Below, one piece after another: positions 1-18,997 of a stretch of 29,769 nucleotides of DNA. Numbering within the stretch: the first letter of the stretch is position 1; every line of letters starts with the position of its first letter. The notes under the pieces are model-generated. The model was not told the DNA's origin, did no database searches, and saw only the letters and a program-made list of their open reading frames with translations. Made by a program: the position numbers and the translations under genes. The stretch is taken from the sequence record NZ_CP021967.1; one strand, 5' to 3'. This DNA is from a plasmid.

Positions 1-843
1 TGGGATTGCCGCTCGTTAACCAATTTTTAGCACAAGGCTACGCGCTTGTGCGTATTTTAAGTGCACTTAAAATCAAACCTAGTACCTATTACAACTGGCG
101 CCATTGGCAGCCCAGTCGACAAGAAAAGCGTAGAGAATCTCTAAAACCTTATATTTTAGACGTTTGGAAAACCTTTAAATTTTATGGTTATCGCCGTATT
201 GCTGCTTATAGTCAACAAACCGACGGTCCGAAAGTATCTGGGTATATGACACTCAAATTGATGCGTGAATTAGGGATTAAATCCCGCATGCAAAAACGTT
301 ATCGCAAGCCAAAAACTGTGGTGACTGTTGATCAAAAGCCCAATTTGATTAGACACTTGCATGATTTGAGCGGTGTTTGGCAAACAGATATCACTTATAT
401 TCAGTTGACTAATCACAGATGGGTCTATTTAGCGACCGTTTTGGATCCTGAGAAGAGAAAAGTATTGGGCTATAAAATTGGCGATACAATGACAGCCGAG
501 CTAGCCACAAGTGCCTTACAGATGGCTTTAGATAAGCATCGAAGGCCATTAATTATTCATTCAGATATGGGGTCACATACACGAGTGCTGAATTTAATAT
601 TAAATGTCAAAATTATGGCTTGAAACATTCATATTCACTCAAAGGACATCCATACGATAATGGCCGTATGGAAGCATTTCATTCAATATTGAAACGTGAA
701 GAGGTGTATTTGAAGGCATACGAAACATTAACGCAAGTCCAAGCAGCCATTGGTTGGTATATCAATTTTTATAATCGCAATCGTATCTCAAATGTTGCCT
801 AAGTAACTGAATAAAAATAGTCCAATTTATTGACTTCTGAGCA
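1..843 (+). mobile_element. IS3-family element type A, 3' part (843 bp) of a copy split by the window origin. Joined to 29414..29769 it gives a 1199-bp copy.
   Basis: Sequence is identical to the reverse complement of 14606..15448 and 16544..17386. The right terminus ...TTGACTTCTGAGCA ends at 843. The window end ...GTCCGTAATG runs seamlessly into the window start TGGGATTGCC, as in the internal copies. Confidence 0.85.
6..802 (+). pseudogene. IS type-A orfB (DDE integrase/transposase), frameshifted and split into 6..623 and 620..802.
   Basis: Here ...HSDMGS is followed by HTRVLNLILNVKIMA*. The diverged paralog at 24587..25024 and the type-B IS both read HSDMGSQ(Y/F)TS...HSYSLKGHPYDN... through this point. 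The difference is a 1-nt deletion (CAATACACG -> CATACACG) that separates DD from the E of the DDE triad. Confidence 0.8.
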
Positions 844-1073
844 CATAGCACTGTTCATTGTTTTAGGCTTATCAATAATAATTGGCTCTTCTTGGTTGAT
901 CGTAAACTATCCACAAAAAATTATTTACTTCGTTACTATGATAGTTGGAGTTGTCATAATAATTATGACTAAACCCATTTGGCCCACAAAAAATAGAAAT
1001 GCTGAATAATTCAGAAATGATTGAGTTAAGGGGCTATAACTATCAATTGTCTCTGTTAAATACTATAAAAAAA

Positions 1074-1113
1074 GCCTCTAACAAATCAACTTGGCTTGTT
1101 AGAGGCTTTTTTT
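1074..1113. terminator. Rho-independent terminator, bidirectional (A-run before, T-run after).
   Basis: Stem GCCTCTAACAA / TTGTTAGAGGC with a TTTTTTTATTT tail. Confidence 0.6.
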
Positions 1114-1217
1114 ATTTAGATAATATAATAGCCCTTGAAATGTAAGGCTAAATTGAATGGCTAAGCGTTGCTATATAGAGGCGCATAAATACTTTGTTTC
1201 TCAATTTTGGCTAGGCA

Positions 1218-1226
1218 TGTTATAAT
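1218..1226 (+). promoter_or_regulatory. Extended -10 promoter (TGTTATAAT) driving a short + strand transcript.
   Basis: Canonical TGnTATAAT. An intrinsic terminator lies ~85 nt downstream. Confidence 0.45.
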
Positions 1227-1232
1227 GAATAC

Positions 1233-1350
1233 AGAAAAAGGAAGCCTTGCGCTAACAAGACTTCCCATTATAGAGCCGTATAAGACGGTGGCAAACTTAA
1301 AACGATTAAATAACCGCTAGCTTGGCAGAGCTAAGGCGGTTATTTTTTTT
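1233..1350 (+). ncRNA. Candidate ~110-nt sRNA (antitoxin-like RNA of module a), ending in a bidirectional terminator shared with the convergent peptide gene.
   Basis: Promoter at 1218..1226. Terminator stem TAACCGC...GCGGTTA (1311..1342) plus a T8 tract. No plausible ORF with an RBS. Confidence 0.35.
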
Positions 1351-1444
1351 GTTGGTTTTTAATCAACTCAACAACTAATGCTAGTAAGGTAACTATGAAA
1401 GTACCAAACATTAGCATAAGCTGTAAAGCGTCCGATACGGACAC
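1340..1444 (-). CDS. 34-aa hydrophobic peptide (VSVSDALQLMLMFGTFIVTLLALVVELIKNQQKK; GTG start). Candidate Fst/Ldr-like type I toxin (module a).
   Basis: RBS AAGGAG lies 7 nt upstream of GTG. The peptide has a single TM-like core and a Lys-rich tail. The stop abuts the bidirectional terminator. An upstream TGTATAAT -10 on the minus strand (1551..1546) gives a ~95-nt 5' UTR. The ORF is under 60 aa and so is absent from the ORF track. Confidence 0.4.
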   Translation of the reverse strand: MSVSDALQLMLMFGTFIVTLLALVVELIKNQQKK

Positions 1445-1649
1445 TTGGGCTACTCCTTTCCTAGAATGTGAGTTTATAGTTTTTACACCATAAGCACCAC
1501 CCCCCTTAAGGAAATAGCCACCGCCTTAACTTCTCTACTTGAACTATTATACAGGATAAAGCGTGATTTACCTATTGATGATTAATGCTCTAATATCCTG
1601 AACGGCTAGTTTTCTATTTTCAATATAAATATAATTATCCGACATGTTT

Positions 1650-1967
1650 TCAATGAACCCAGATATATTTTTTTTTGGTTTCATGATTGAAGTTAGTTTC
1701 ATCTAATTGAATAGTCACAGTATAATAATTTGCTAATGCGTGCATTGCATTATGAAATATTTTATCCGTAGTCATTTTGGGTAACTTTTTTTCACTATAT
1801 ACATTTTCCTGATCCATTTTCCTTAATGCAGAAGTATGGTCGCTTAAAAAGAAGCCACGCCACTTTTTAATGCCCCTATCTCTATAATCATACTGAAAGT
1901 AATTATTGATTAAAGCGCTAAAATCTTGATCCATTTCATTTCTCATTTCAAATTTTTTATTCCTCAA
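1650..1967 (-). CDS. Hypothetical protein, 105 aa (motif YDYRDRGIKKWRGFFLSDHT), transcribed divergently from the AT-rich two-gene operon.
   Basis: Intact ORF in a very AT-rich segment. No family recognised by eye. Confidence 0.5.
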   Translation of the reverse strand: MRNKKFEMRNEMDQDFSALINNYFQYDYRDRGIKKWRGFFLSDHTSALRKMDQENVYSEKKLPKMTTDKIFHNAMHALANYYTVTIQLDETNFNHETKKKYIWVH

Positions 1968-2067
1968 TTATACGAACGTTAGTTCCCTTATGCAAGCGGC
2001 TCGATTTTAAACTTTTGTTATATTATATATGTAGTTCAAAAATATAGACTAAAAGGAAAATTTTGTT

Positions 2068-2739
2068 ATGCTTAAAATACTAAGTGAATCCATATACCAA
2101 ATTTACAAGTTTACATCAGGGATAGTATCATGGGGATTAATTAATATACCTGTTAGCTGGTTATCTTTTTTTATAGCCATCATAGGTTTGGCTAGGAATA
2201 ATCATAATAAATTACGACAAAGATTTGATTATTCATCAGTAACCCACCCATGTAATACAGTTATTACTGTTTACAACGACAGTTTAGTAACAGAAACTTC
2301 ACGATTTAATGGAATAATAGTCACTGCAAAAAAGCCAAACTTACTACGGAAAAAAGTAATTAAATGGAATTTGAAAAATAAAAAATTTGGACATAATAAA
2401 CAGCTTTTATTCCCTTTTCATCAAATGGTAAATATTCAGAATAACGAAGAAATAAAACAATCTGATTTTTTTGCTGTTAAGAGCCATGAAATGAGAGAAA
2501 TTATAATCAATAAAAAAAATTTTTTAAATTCAATAAAAAATAAGCTATACAGTAATATTAAGGCACTTACAAAGTTTACTAATAAGAAAGCATTTTATGT
2601 ATATTTTGTTTATGAAACGGTTACTGGTAAAACAAGAATGTTTGCTGTTAAAATTATTTTTGATGACCCTATTGGTCAGGATCTAAATATTGACGATTGT
2701 AATAAAGTGCTACAAGCTAAATTAAAGTACAATAACTAA
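2068..2739 (+). CDS. Hypothetical membrane-anchored protein, 223 aa. One or two N-terminal TM helices, then a Lys/Asn-rich soluble domain.
   Basis: Hydrophobic stretch GIVSWGLINIPVSWLSFFIAIIGLA at residues ~18-42. RBS AAAGGAAAA upstream. The next gene starts 53 bp downstream, so the two are probably co-transcribed. Confidence 0.6.
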   Translation: MLKILSESIYQIYKFTSGIVSWGLINIPVSWLSFFIAIIGLARNNHNKLRQRFDYSSVTHPCNTVITVYNDSLVTETSRFNGIIVTAKKPNLLRKKVIKWNLKNKKFGHNKQLLFPFHQMVNIQNNEEIKQSDFFAVKSHEMREIIINKKNFLNSIKNKLYSNIKALTKFTNKKAFYVYFVYETVTGKTRMFAVKIIFDDPIGQDLNIDDCNKVLQAKLKYNN

Positions 2740-2792
2740 CAAGTTAAGGGTAAAATACAACTAATATTTAAAAAAAGGGATAGCATTAATAG

Positions 2793-3899
2793 ATGGATTA
2801 CACTGAATTCTACAAACATGTTCAAAACGAATTGAAAGTTACCGGAACAGATAACCAGTTTCATCTGTATTATGATGAAACAAATAACTTTAGATCTTTT
2901 AAAGTAGACGATAAAGGTTTTAATGCTGACGAACATGCCTATTTCATACTTGGAGGAATTGGCATAAAAACCGACTCGCATGACATTGTTGAAGGTGTTG
3001 ATAGCCTCTTCTCAAAATTTGGTATGCAAGCAAATGCTCAAGAAATAAAGTTTAAGCATATCAAGAATGGTGCCAATAATTTTATTGAGTTAATGGATAA
3101 AAAAAGAGTAAAAGTTTTTTTGAATTGGCTTTATGAAAATGACAATGTTTTTATCCACTATAATTATGTAGATAATTTTTATTTCTCTATTGTTGACATT
3201 GTTGACTCTTTACCCAATTCAATGCTTCTCGGCATAGAATTTAATCGTGACCTAAAAGATTGTTTGTATCAAATTATGAAAACTGATAAAGAATATTTTA
3301 CAAACCTTTTCGTTTTATTAGGCTATCCAAATGTTAACAACCCTAAATTACTAATAAATAAAATTATAGAAAAGATAAATGAAATTACCCCATACGGAGA
3401 TGATTTTTGTTTAGAGTATTTACGACAGATCTTAAAATCAGCAATTAGGTCCAAACTTCCTCTTTTAGAAAATAATGTCGAGGGTGAATTGATAGATAAC
3501 TACTCTGATCTATACGCACAGAGTATTTATTCTTTTCCAAATTCTCATCACAAATTTGATCATGAATATAATATTGAGCCATTTTTAGCGAATAACCCTA
3601 TTTATGTAAATGACAAACTAGTAGACTATATTTTTGATGATTCTAAACATTCTCGATTATTACAATTATCTGATTTAACAGTTGGCATTTTAAGACATTG
3701 GATGAGTTTCCTTGAAAAAAATTCGGAATCGAAAATTTCAGATATTTTAAACAGTTTATCTAGCAATCAAGAAACAAACATTCGAAAATTACAACAAGTT
3801 ATGAACAATTCACTATCTGAAAGTCAGGGTTTCAAAATTGGTTCTGGGAGTAATACGTTTGAAAATAAAGTTTCCGATTTCTTAACTTATAAATTTTAA
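2793..3899 (+). CDS. Hypothetical 368-aa protein with DUF3800-like motifs (FHLYYDETNN near the N-terminus, SRLLQLSDLTVGIL near the C-terminus). Candidate effector of an uncharacterised defence/Abi pair.
   Basis: Long intact ORF in the ~27% GC island. The family assignment comes from remembered consensus motifs (iyiDESG ... QlADl) and is not verified. Confidence 0.65.
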   Translation: MDYTEFYKHVQNELKVTGTDNQFHLYYDETNNFRSFKVDDKGFNADEHAYFILGGIGIKTDSHDIVEGVDSLFSKFGMQANAQEIKFKHIKNGANNFIELMDKKRVKVFLNWLYENDNVFIHYNYVDNFYFSIVDIVDSLPNSMLLGIEFNRDLKDCLYQIMKTDKEYFTNLFVLLGYPNVNNPKLLINKIIEKINEITPYGDDFCLEYLRQILKSAIRSKLPLLENNVEGELIDNYSDLYAQSIYSFPNSHHKFDHEYNIEPFLANNPIYVNDKLVDYIFDDSKHSRLLQLSDLTVGILRHWMSFLEKNSESKISDILNSLSSNQETNIRKLQQVMNNSLSESQGFKIGSGSNTFENKVSDFLTYKF

Positions 3900-4104
3900 C
3901 TAGAATAATTCAGATACTCGATTATTACTGACTATAAAAGATCCAGAACATATCAACTTAAGGACGGTAAGAAATTATATTAAATTTAATTTGCGATACA
4001 AGATAATGTGCATTAAAAGGTGACATATCTTAACAATTGTGTCGCTTTTTTTTTGTGCCTTATAATTAAAGGTGTTAAAATAAGTCATAACTTACCACCA
4101 TAAA

Positions 4105-18034: not shown

Positions 18035-18997
18035 TCAAATCTTTTTGAACAGTGGTTTCATGATTATCGGAGCTACTATTGTTGAAACGATGACAGCAAC
18101 AATAAACTCCGCTGAAGTATAATCATCAATAATATGTGATGATATACCTATTTGAATAATCACAAGGGCCATCTCACCTCTAGAAATCATGCCTGCCCCA
18201 ATTGCACTTGAAACTCTGGTATCTAGACCAGAAATTTTTGCTCCCCATAACGAGCCAACAAATTTTGTGACAATAGCTAAAATACTAAAAATTATAATAG
18301 CTGTTATCTTATCTCCCAGTCCCTGGATTACGATTTCAAGACCGATGGACCCGAAAAATACAGGGTAAAAGAAAGAATTACCCATTTTCGTACTGATAAC
18401 ACCAATTTTATCAGAAAAATTATACTTCCTGAGTAGTATACCTAACGCAAAAGCGAGTAATGGTAAAATACTGTTTATCCCCAGTGCACCTCCACCTACT
18501 AAAACAGAAAATAAAGTCACCGCAAACAAAGCAATTATGTCATCTATTACAGCCGCCGAAAGTATGATTGCTCCTATTGCAGTGGCTAATTTTTTTTGTT
18601 CCGATAGTACAGCTAACGTTATAGAGATTGAAGTTGCAGAGAACACAACACCGGCAAATATGGAAGTCTGTATATTATATCCAAGCAATAAAAATGCAAT
18701 CGGGAAAGTAATTAAGGGTAGTAGTACCCCCATAACTGCAATGAGTGACGATGCTTTAATGTATCTTTTCATTTCCTTTAAATCCGACTCTAGTCCCGAA
18801 TTTAACATCAGTAAAAAAATACCTATCTCAGCTATCAAGTGGATTAAATTACTTGACTGTACTATATTAAATATGCTGGATCCTAAAATGATACCTGAAA
18901 ATAGTTGCCCAACAACTTCAGAAAAACCAAACCAGGTGCCTACCTTTCCCAGAAAAATAGTAACTATGACTAAGAACATGATTAATAGATATTCCAT
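18035..18997 (-). CDS. Cation:proton antiporter (Na_H_Exchanger fold, CPA1/CPA2-like), short 320-aa membrane-only form.
   Basis: ~10 predicted TM helices. Conserved SATSISITLAVL and IDD motifs typical of NapA/KefB-type exchangers. Confidence 0.65.
   Translation of the reverse strand: MEYLLIMFLVIVTIFLGKVGTWFGFSEVVGQLFSGIILGSSIFNIVQSSNLIHLIAEIGIFLLMLNSGLESDLKEMKRYIKASSLIAVMGVLLPLITFPIAFLLLGYNIQTSIFAGVVFSATSISITLAVLSEQKKLATAIGAIILSAAVIDDIIALFAVTLFSVLVGGGALGINSILPLLAFALGILLRKYNFSDKIGVISTKMGNSFFYPVFFGSIGLEIVIQGLGDKITAIIIFSILAIVTKFVGSLWGAKISGLDTRVSSAIGAGMISRGEMALVIIQIGISSHIIDDYTSAEFIVAVIVSTIVAPIIMKPLFKKI

Follow-up and report, generated by a model that had tools for sequence, protein, structure and literature searches.

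Near one end of a 29,769-nucleotide (nt) stretch of Leuconostoc mesenteroides plasmid DNA (sequence record NZ_CP021967.1; hereafter ‘the window’), we find what we regard with good confidence as a plasmid-borne type I toxin–antitoxin (TA) module of the TxpA/RatA super-group. It comprises a toxin of the Hol_Tox family, an antitoxin small RNA (sRNA) of the RatA type, and, on the toxin mRNA, a leader of the rli28 family. Hol_Tox is the group of BsrE/BsrH, ComI, PepG1 and EF3263. Systems of this kind are already known, the peptide is already annotated, and this very locus is very probably known too. What is mildly new is confined to comparative evidence, from aligned sequences, for a long-range helix resembling that of bsrG across the Hol_Tox/RatA/rli28 group. 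The features of the module and of its surroundings are collected in Table 1.

The assignment is carried by matches to three families. On the plus strand, positions 1223-1312 match Rfam RatA (RF01776) over model positions 1-91 of 91, at 91.6 bits (gathering score 49); among Rfam matches with E<=1, RatA is the only antitoxin-RNA family for the sRNA. On the minus strand, positions 1560..1378 match Rfam rli28 (RF01492) at 69.3 bits (gathering score 45). This second match covers the -10 element of the toxin promoter, the 5′ untranslated region (5′UTR) and 67 nt of the open reading frame (ORF); what Rfam calls ‘rli28’ is thus, at this locus, the 5′ portion of the toxin mRNA. The peptide, finally, matches Pfam Hol_Tox (PF16935) with E 1.8e-16 and 60.1 bits against a cut-off of 23.3, its residues 1-34 lying on profile positions 1-34. 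A Pfam scan of the peptide at E<=10 returned Hol_Tox only; Fst was not matched.

An initial annotation, made from the letters of the window, had read the locus as a type I TA module, and these matches show that it was right to do so. The features it listed are all present where it placed them or within a few bases. They include the plus-strand promoter and short non-coding RNA (predicted here at ~120 nt, rather than ~110), and a minus-strand ORF of 34 amino acids (aa) with the ribosome-binding site AAGGAG, a GTG start, and a 5′UTR of ~95 nt transcribed from its own promoter. Further claims, among them those concerning the family, the shared terminator and the partner of a 5′–3′ fold-back, fared less well and are taken up below.

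Table 1. Features of the module and its surroundings in the window
Feature	Position	Strand	Basis or remark
Antitoxin promoter: -35 TTCTCA, 17-nt spacer, extended -10 TGTTATAAT ending at 1226	1198..1226	+	Consensus scan, 10/12 with TG
RatA-type sRNA, ~120 nt, predicted ends	1233..1352	+	SL1, SL2, variable linker, T1, U-run
Hairpin T1, contains toxin stop codon	1308..1345	both	Inverted repeat 10/10; intrinsic terminator of sRNA
Hairpin T2 + UUUUUCUGU, canonical minus-strand terminator, antisense of sRNA SL1	1266..1232	-	Hairpin 1266..1239, then UUUUUC
Proposed 3′ strand of helix P1, antisense of sRNA SL2 and flanks	1292..1270	-	Inverted repeat; only in read-through mRNA
Toxin ORF, 34 aa, GTG start, MSVSDALQLMLMFGTFIVTLLALVVELIKNQQKK, Hol_Tox family	1444..1340	-	Pfam PF16935
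Shine–Dalgarno sequence AAGGAG of toxin ORF	1458..1453	-	8 nt upstream of GTG start; read from sequence
Invariant block: G-rich Shine–Dalgarno-like run, 8-nt spacer, mini-ORF AUG GUG UAA (1491..1483)	1507..1483	-	Invariant alignment columns
Anti-Shine–Dalgarno sequence GGCUAUUUCC	1519..1510	-	Pairs with GGAGUAGCC in minimum free energy folds
Proposed 5′-terminal strand of helix P1 (GUAGAGAAGUUAAGGCGGUGGC), containing the AAGGCGGTGGC box of the initial annotation	1538..1517	-	Nearly invariant in relatives
Toxin mRNA 5′UTR, 95 nt	1539..1445	-	rli28 match, together with first two thirds of ORF
Toxin promoter, extended -10 TGTATAAT, weak -35	1553..1546	-	Read from sequence; conserved in alignment; inside rli28 match
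IS3-family transposase (rve + HTH_21 domains)	6-802	+	Split into ORFs 6-623 and 620-802; adjoins module
ORF of 42-45 aa, hydrophobic stretch, Shine–Dalgarno-like motif upstream, KKI tail	18035-18172	-	Crude small-toxin screen

THE TOXIN PEPTIDE

The peptide is small and has a single transmembrane segment. The final codons of its ORF, AAA AAA TAA, fall within the A-tract and stem of the hairpin that follows. In an alignment of relatives—here and below these were drawn from a plasmid collection—third codon positions vary most (entropies of 12.6, 7.5 and 25.2 for the first, second and third positions), and the start codon is GTG, ATG or TTG with its position unchanged. This third-position variation, together with start-codon switching at a fixed position, shows that the toxin ORF is a real gene; judged by the alignment, its product is under purifying selection. 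Relatives from Listeria, Staphylococcus aureus and Lactobacillaceae also match Hol_Tox. The PepG1 model (NCBIfam NF041589) aligns the peptide to positions 14-47 with E 2e-10 and 40.1 bits against a cut-off of 70, and the ComI model (NCBIfam NF052249) scores it at 37.6 bits against a cut-off of 55. Because both scores lie under the cut-offs, the peptide is a homologue of PepG1 and ComI and not an equivalog.

RefSeq copies, for example that of plasmid pLEUM1, annotate the peptide as ‘putative holin-like toxin’ (WP_219843271.1); for the public records, the earlier statement that the ORF track captures none of the module is wrong. Among relatives, RefSeq and GenBank start calls for the toxin are inconsistent. 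At five loci (L124, L125, L126, L127 and L130) the coding sequence is given as 78 nt, with a 25-aa product from an internal ATG in several records, and at three others (L128, L131 and L139) much longer products of 47-72 aa are annotated from upstream starts. The 34-aa form is the one favoured by the alignment. A phage holin of a lysis cassette was considered as well, and rejected: the setting is a plasmid, and there is no endolysin among the neighbours.

THE ANTITOXIN RNA

The predicted sRNA (~1233-1352) lacks a start codon. Its fold consists of three hairpins, SL1 (1240-1265), SL2 (1275-1289) and the terminator T1 (1308-1345), the last followed by a U-run to 1352; the fold has an energy of -36.3 kcal/mol (z = -3.7). 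RNAalifold applied to 17 relatives keeps SL1, SL2 and T1, with eight covarying pairs, and the TATAAT of the antitoxin promoter is also kept in relatives.

With the ends as predicted, the sRNA is a perfect antisense over its 3′ 54 nt, which face the toxin mRNA from its last four codons through the stop codon to the 3′ hairpin. The sRNA terminator and its U-run (1308-1352) span the stop codon (1340-1342), and the overlap takes in 13 nt of the ORF (1340-1352). The overlap would be ~120 nt, instead of 54, if the mRNA reads through T1. Cofolding of the two RNAs reproduces the pairing that had been foreseen for them: a 54-bp intermolecular helix forms, at -166.0 kcal/mol versus -85.3 and -35.4 for the toxin mRNA and the sRNA when free. 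The sRNA also carries a near-copy of the mRNA 5′ end (GUAGAG..UAAGACGGUGGC versus GUAGAG..UAAGGCGGUGGC). The repeats found in 1190-1600 are inverted ones only, which means that the sRNA body resembles the toxin leader in the same sense and is related to it in no other way.

Two further candidates in this region were rejected. The first codon of a plus-strand ORF at 1207-1320 (37 aa) precedes the predicted sRNA start, and the RefSeq copy bears no gene annotation there. Within the sRNA gene, a minus-strand promoter close to consensus (TTGCCA-16-TATAAT, 1294..1267) takes its -10 from ATTATA, which is ATGTAG in most relatives.

THE LEADER OF THE TOXIN mRNA

The helix between the anti-Shine–Dalgarno (anti-SD) and Shine–Dalgarno (SD) sequences is paired in 92.9% of alignment cells over 19 relatives, with one compensatory pair. 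An alternative hairpin, in which the anti-SD pairs with an upstream GGAGG block, is likewise conserved. Sequestration of the ribosome-binding site by the 5′UTR, as proposed earlier, is predicted: the probability that AAGGAG is unpaired is 0.05 in the short mRNA, or in mRNA bound by the sRNA, and 0.31 in the free long mRNA (both forms are described below). The consensus pairing of Rfam rli28, of GUGGC with a segment inside the ORF, reaches only 4/5 at this locus.

The block at 1507..1483 ranks among the most conserved stretches of the 5′UTR. Its mini-ORF, of two codons here, reads AUG GUG UUA AAC CUU UAA in relatives. At an S. aureus locus there is a 13-codon leader ORF, the UGA stop of which overlaps the GUG start of the toxin.

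WHERE THE TOXIN mRNA MAY END, AND A PROPOSED LONG-RANGE HELIX

Two hairpins could end the toxin mRNA. The first, T1, is the terminator of the sRNA and is common to both RNAs; it folds at -15.5 to -17.3 kcal/mol, and six of its ten outer pairs covary. On the plus strand it is followed by U8, and on the minus strand only by UUAUUUAAUCGUUUU / UUAUUUAAUCG; in the S. aureus homologue, the mRNA strand carries no U-tract behind T1. The second hairpin, T2, lies 45 nt beyond T1 on the minus strand. It folds at -16.9 kcal/mol, no other terminator-like site in 1..4000 has so long a stem (12 pairs, 5 of them G-C), and the T2 hairpin and U-run are conserved in relatives, with covariation. The shared hairpin of the initial annotation stands, but ‘bidirectional terminator’ does not follow from it, given the poor tail after T1 on the minus strand and the cleaner terminator 45 nt further on. 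On the minus strand T1 is possibly a weaker terminator, of a short toxin mRNA (~241 nt); T2 we propose, from modelled folds, as the end of a long one (~308-309 nt).

These two ends predict different partners for the mRNA 5′ end. Strand 1538..1517 pairs with 1292..1270 in the 309-nt and consensus folds, and with 1340..1329 in the 241-nt fold. The former helix, which we call P1 after its counterpart in bsrG, joins nt 2-23 (1538..1517) to nt 248-270 (1292..1270) in the minimum free energy (MFE) fold of the 309-nt mRNA (-116.7 kcal/mol), with both hairpins intact, and RNAalifold retains it in the consensus for 19 long mRNAs, which come from four genera. In the alignment 96.8% of its cells are paired and six pairs have changed on both sides, a result reached by 0/500 shuffles; control helices, made by sliding the strands, are 27-71% paired.

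The latter helix belongs to the most serious alternative. In it, the toxin mRNA ends at T1 (~241 nt), a box in the 5′UTR (1531..1520) folds back on the T1 arm (1340..1329) to give an inert full-length mRNA in the manner of hok or AapA, and the sRNA acts only through the 54-nt overlap. The box and arm form 12 contiguous pairs, including one G-U, and the MFE fold of the 241-nt mRNA (1539..1299; -85.3 kcal/mol, z = -6.0) uses precisely this helix: leader nt 9-20 pair with the 5′ arm of T1, with probabilities of 0.8-1.0, and stack on the anti-SD/SD helix. Two bases that are bulged in the T1 hairpin become paired in the fold-back. The helix is contained in the RNAalifold consensus of 19 short mRNAs, and in the relatives 95-97% of its cells are paired, with two compensatory pairs. 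By eye, S. aureus (UGAUGGU/ACCAUCA) and Listeria (AGAUGGU/ACCAUCU) keep the pairing with sequences that differ from those here (AAGGCGGU/ACCGCCUU): it extends to 12/13 positions in S. aureus, and to seven contiguous pairs and more in Listeria. The tail after T1 is UUAUUU, with five U among eight bases in the majority of relatives. An end at T1 is disfavoured by the missing U-tract of the S. aureus homologue. The fold-back, moreover, requires that the terminator be undone, for a gain of only 3.6 kcal/mol over the intact terminator hairpin, and in the single sequence the helix is near chance, being equalled by 148/3000 dinucleotide shuffles (5%). Its probability falls to 0 in the 309-nt mRNA, and P1 has three times as many covarying pairs. 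We consider the T1-ending model unlikely, and from the modelled folds and their covariation we favour read-through and P1. A 5′–3′ fold-back of the toxin mRNA had been proposed from the start. It is plausible and is conserved in relatives, but the partner then chosen, the terminator arm, competes with the longer and better-covarying partner in P1.

A PROPOSED MECHANISM

By analogy with txpA/RatA, bsrG/SR4 and bsrE/SR5 (PMC6562991), the sRNA would be made from the stronger promoter, and in excess; it would form a duplex with the toxin mRNA’s 3′ end, and RNase III would cut this duplex and bring about decay of the mRNA. Upon loss of the plasmid, or a fall in the sRNA, the sRNA would decay first, the structured mRNA would be translated, and the peptide would damage the membrane, with post-segregational killing or growth arrest as the outcome. 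Folds and covariation suggest, further, that the toxin mRNA is intrinsically poorly translatable, because its 5′UTR sequesters the SD, and that its 5′ end closes on its 3′ part. In the version we favour, the mRNA would mostly read through T1 and end at T2, and its 5′ nt 2-23 would pair with nt 248-270, as in P1 of bsrG. By pairing with the 3′ strand of P1, the sRNA would displace the mRNA 5′ end, and at this locus displacement is predicted to tighten sequestration of the SD (from 0.31 to 0.05 unpaired).

A number of observations weigh against this picture. The covariation of T2 can be explained entirely by T2 being, on the other strand, SL1 of the sRNA, and the conservation of the 3′ strand of P1 by its being SL2. 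Transcript ends are predicted, and the mRNA may end at T1, at T2 or at both. The predicted drop in SD accessibility on binding of the sRNA appears at this locus and in a few relatives, not in most of the 19 for which it was computed, and in Listeria the effect is reversed; because it is inconsistent among relatives, we treat it as a possibility for this locus only. Two loci (L129:40825-41009 and L136) keep the 5′ box without the usual 3′ hairpin or RatA, so the role of the box may be independent of either 3′ partner. Finally, the B. subtilis relatives have overlaps of 100-140 bp and longer sRNAs (PMC6562991), and details may differ here.

A broader conjecture can be framed, to which we give somewhat less than an even chance. 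Across the Hol_Tox/RatA/rli28/SprG group, in Lactobacillaceae, Enterococcus, Listeria and Staphylococcus, the functional form of the mRNA might be the read-through to the antisense of sRNA SL1, with its 5′ end paired to the antisense of SL2; the antitoxin might mimic the mRNA 5′ end and act in part by a strand displacement that re-sequesters the SD, and the mini-ORF might serve as a switch for opening the toxin SD. If true, this would extend the dual mechanism of the bsrG/SR4 type to a very large, plasmid-borne family. What might interest a specialist is the conserved 5′–3′ helix and, with it, the choice of terminator by the toxin mRNA.

OTHER READINGS OF THE LOCUS

The module could be a decayed, non-functional remnant, carried passively beside the IS3 fragment. 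It does adjoin a truncated IS3-family transposase (6-802) in a mosaic plasmid, and orphan RatA-like pieces without toxin (query 8-113 only) occur on many plasmids. This reading strikes us as improbable: the two promoters, SD, ORF and hairpins are all intact, at least 80% of the module is preserved in 329 records, and the peptide is under purifying selection.

There is little to recommend reading the minus-strand transcript as ‘rli28’, a regulatory sRNA without coding function, in which the small ORF is incidental. Rfam classes rli28 as an sRNA, and the study of Lacticaseibacillus casei Zhang took rli28c for a growth-repressing sRNA (PMC8249650). The ORF, however, is a full-length member of Hol_Tox with a consensus SD at 8 nt; it shows third-position variation, and start-codon switches at a fixed position; its homologues PepG1, EF3263, BsrE and ComI are known toxic or active peptides; and a gain in growth on deletion of rli28c is what would be expected from loss of a toxin gene.

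Membership of the par family (Fst/RNA II) of Enterococcus faecalis pAD1, which the initial annotation had preferred, is hardly tenable: par too is a plasmid type I TA system with convergent RNAs, a hairpin common to both in the terminator region and a hydrophobic toxin of ~33 aa (~34 here), so the layouts are alike, but the toxin family and the RNA family both differ, the peptide matching Hol_Tox alone and the sRNA RatA; our sRNA overlaps the end of the ORF, unlike that of Fst/RNAII (PMC8594479); and whereas the repeats DRa and DRb of par, transcribed in opposite directions, let the 5′ part of its sRNA reach the toxin initiation region, a repeat search of 1190-1600 found no direct repeat shared by the sRNA body and the toxin 5′ region.

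RELATED SYSTEMS

T1TAdb treats TxpA/RatA and SprG/SprF as overlapping, interchangeable assignments, in both of which the overlap of the sRNA takes in the 3′ end as well as the ORF (PMC8594479). The txpA/RatA system, from the skin element of B. subtilis, is the founder of RF01776 and of the ‘TxpA family’ of Fozo et al. Like the module here it is convergent, with an overlap at the 3′ ends, and its RNase III-dependent mRNA decay would, by analogy, be expected here too. TxpA is 59 aa, RatA is 222 nt and their overlap is longer (PMC6562991); the corresponding figures here are 34 aa, ~120 nt and 54 nt. txpA/RatA lies on a prophage-like element, whereas the present copy is plasmid-borne. A review by Brantl groups the Lactobacillus and Enterococcus homologues with BsrE/BsrH, not with TxpA/BsrG.

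In bsrG/SR4 (and bsrE/SR5) of B. subtilis, a 5′–3′ helix lies upstream of the terminator, the SD is buried, and an antitoxin directed at the 3′ part frees the 5′ strand (PMC3834814). Helix P1 of the bsrG mRNA, which was determined experimentally, pairs nt 1-35 with nt 232-262, immediately ahead of the terminator; when SR4 binds, the 5′ strand is made single-stranded and the SD helix is extended (PMC3834814). The same layout is predicted here from folds, with covariation. Its score keeps the locus out of the BsrG RNA family: the Rfam BsrG match (1332-1528) is sub-threshold, at 26.6 bits versus 55.

The S. aureus SprG/SprF systems encode the PepG1 peptides. One S. aureus locus (L142) can be aligned across the entire module and has an rli28 match; our peptide aligns to PepG1, but under the equivalog cut-off. 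The upstream AUG of sprG1 starts a longer form of the peptide, while the upstream AUG here meets a stop after two codons.

Listeria plasmids pLM80 and pLI100, and a plasmid of L. casei Zhang, carry the same two Rfam families in the same convergent order as here. Anast et al. 2022 described convergent rli28/ratA on Listeria plasmids, with a small BsrH-like ORF (PMC9484302), and found the pair among the most highly expressed plasmid genes (PMC9484302). This ORF lies inside ‘rli28’ (L144 and L145; PMC9484302), as it does here; the Listeria toxin is 27 aa versus 34 aa, and the box and arm sequences differ. In L. casei Zhang, plasmid rli28c was detected by RNA-seq and its knockout grew better, and plasmid ratA was chosen as a knockout control (Wang et al. 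2021, PMC8249650). Aligned with window positions 1371-1565, rli28c proves clearly homologous, with identity at 146/200 positions. The Listeria and L. casei papers regard rli28 mainly as an sRNA.

Fozo et al. 2010 listed two TxpA-family toxins for L. mesenteroides ATCC 8293 and reported that E. faecalis EF3263 is toxic, with an sRNA of ~110 nt over its 3′UTR (PMC2887945). The copy on pLEUM1, a plasmid of ATCC 8293, may be one of these two entries.

The value of these comparisons lies in annotation hygiene rather than in discovery: ‘rli28’ matches on plasmids of Gram-positive bacteria are leaders of Hol_Tox toxin mRNAs, and they are paired with RatA-type antitoxins.

DISTRIBUTION AND GENOMIC SETTING

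Positions 1100-1700 are 100% identical in 15 L. mesenteroides plasmid records, including pLEUM1. A sensitive search of the plasmid collection found related DNA in 584 records (769 places), mostly from Lactobacillaceae, with at least 80% of the module covered in 329 of them; the Rfam rli28 consensus, used as query, added 343 further records in Enterococcus, Listeria and Staphylococcus. We fetched 24 loci from plasmid records of Lactobacillaceae and of these three genera. All 24 match rli28 above the gathering score, and 19/24 have the convergent pair of RatA (+) and rli28 (-); RatA is not above its gathering score in 5/24. Such modules probably stabilize many plasmids of lactic-acid bacteria that carry metal-resistance and fermentation traits. 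Genome contigs were scanned with a 15-base linker pattern as well, and this gave chance matches: the SL2 motif lay beside none of at least 120 loci.

Partial modules also occur. The RatA-like part alone (query 8-113), without an adjacent toxin leader, is present on many Lactobacillaceae plasmids, and the RatA copy at 39184-39274 of L129 sits 1.5 kb from the nearest rli28 match; lone pieces of this kind look like orphan antitoxins. Conversely, L129:40825-41009 and L136:332-522 have the toxin leader and ORF and the conserved 5′ box, together with a different, long 3′ hairpin, and lack a RatA match. These may be orphan toxins, or may use another antitoxin.

The plasmid is a mosaic. The neighbours of the module are an IS3 fragment, two unknown proteins and a DUF3800 protein, with no endolysin among them. 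On pLEUM1 the upstream neighbour is an HTH regulator instead of the IS3 transposase, a difference that places the module at a recombination junction. Directly upstream of the sRNA promoter, window positions 1060-1124 form a strong A-tract/hairpin/U-tract (AAAAAAGCCTCTAACAA...TTGTTAGAGGCTTTTTTT), which weakly matches the terminator-like Rfam family sau-19 on two strands (33 and 31 bits versus 80). It is probably a bidirectional terminator that insulates the module.

When the whole window was scanned against Rfam by E-value, no further TA-like RNA turned up. A screen of the window for small transmembrane peptides with an SD and a basic tail returned the toxin ORF and one unrelated candidate (18035-18172), which may be part of a larger gene.

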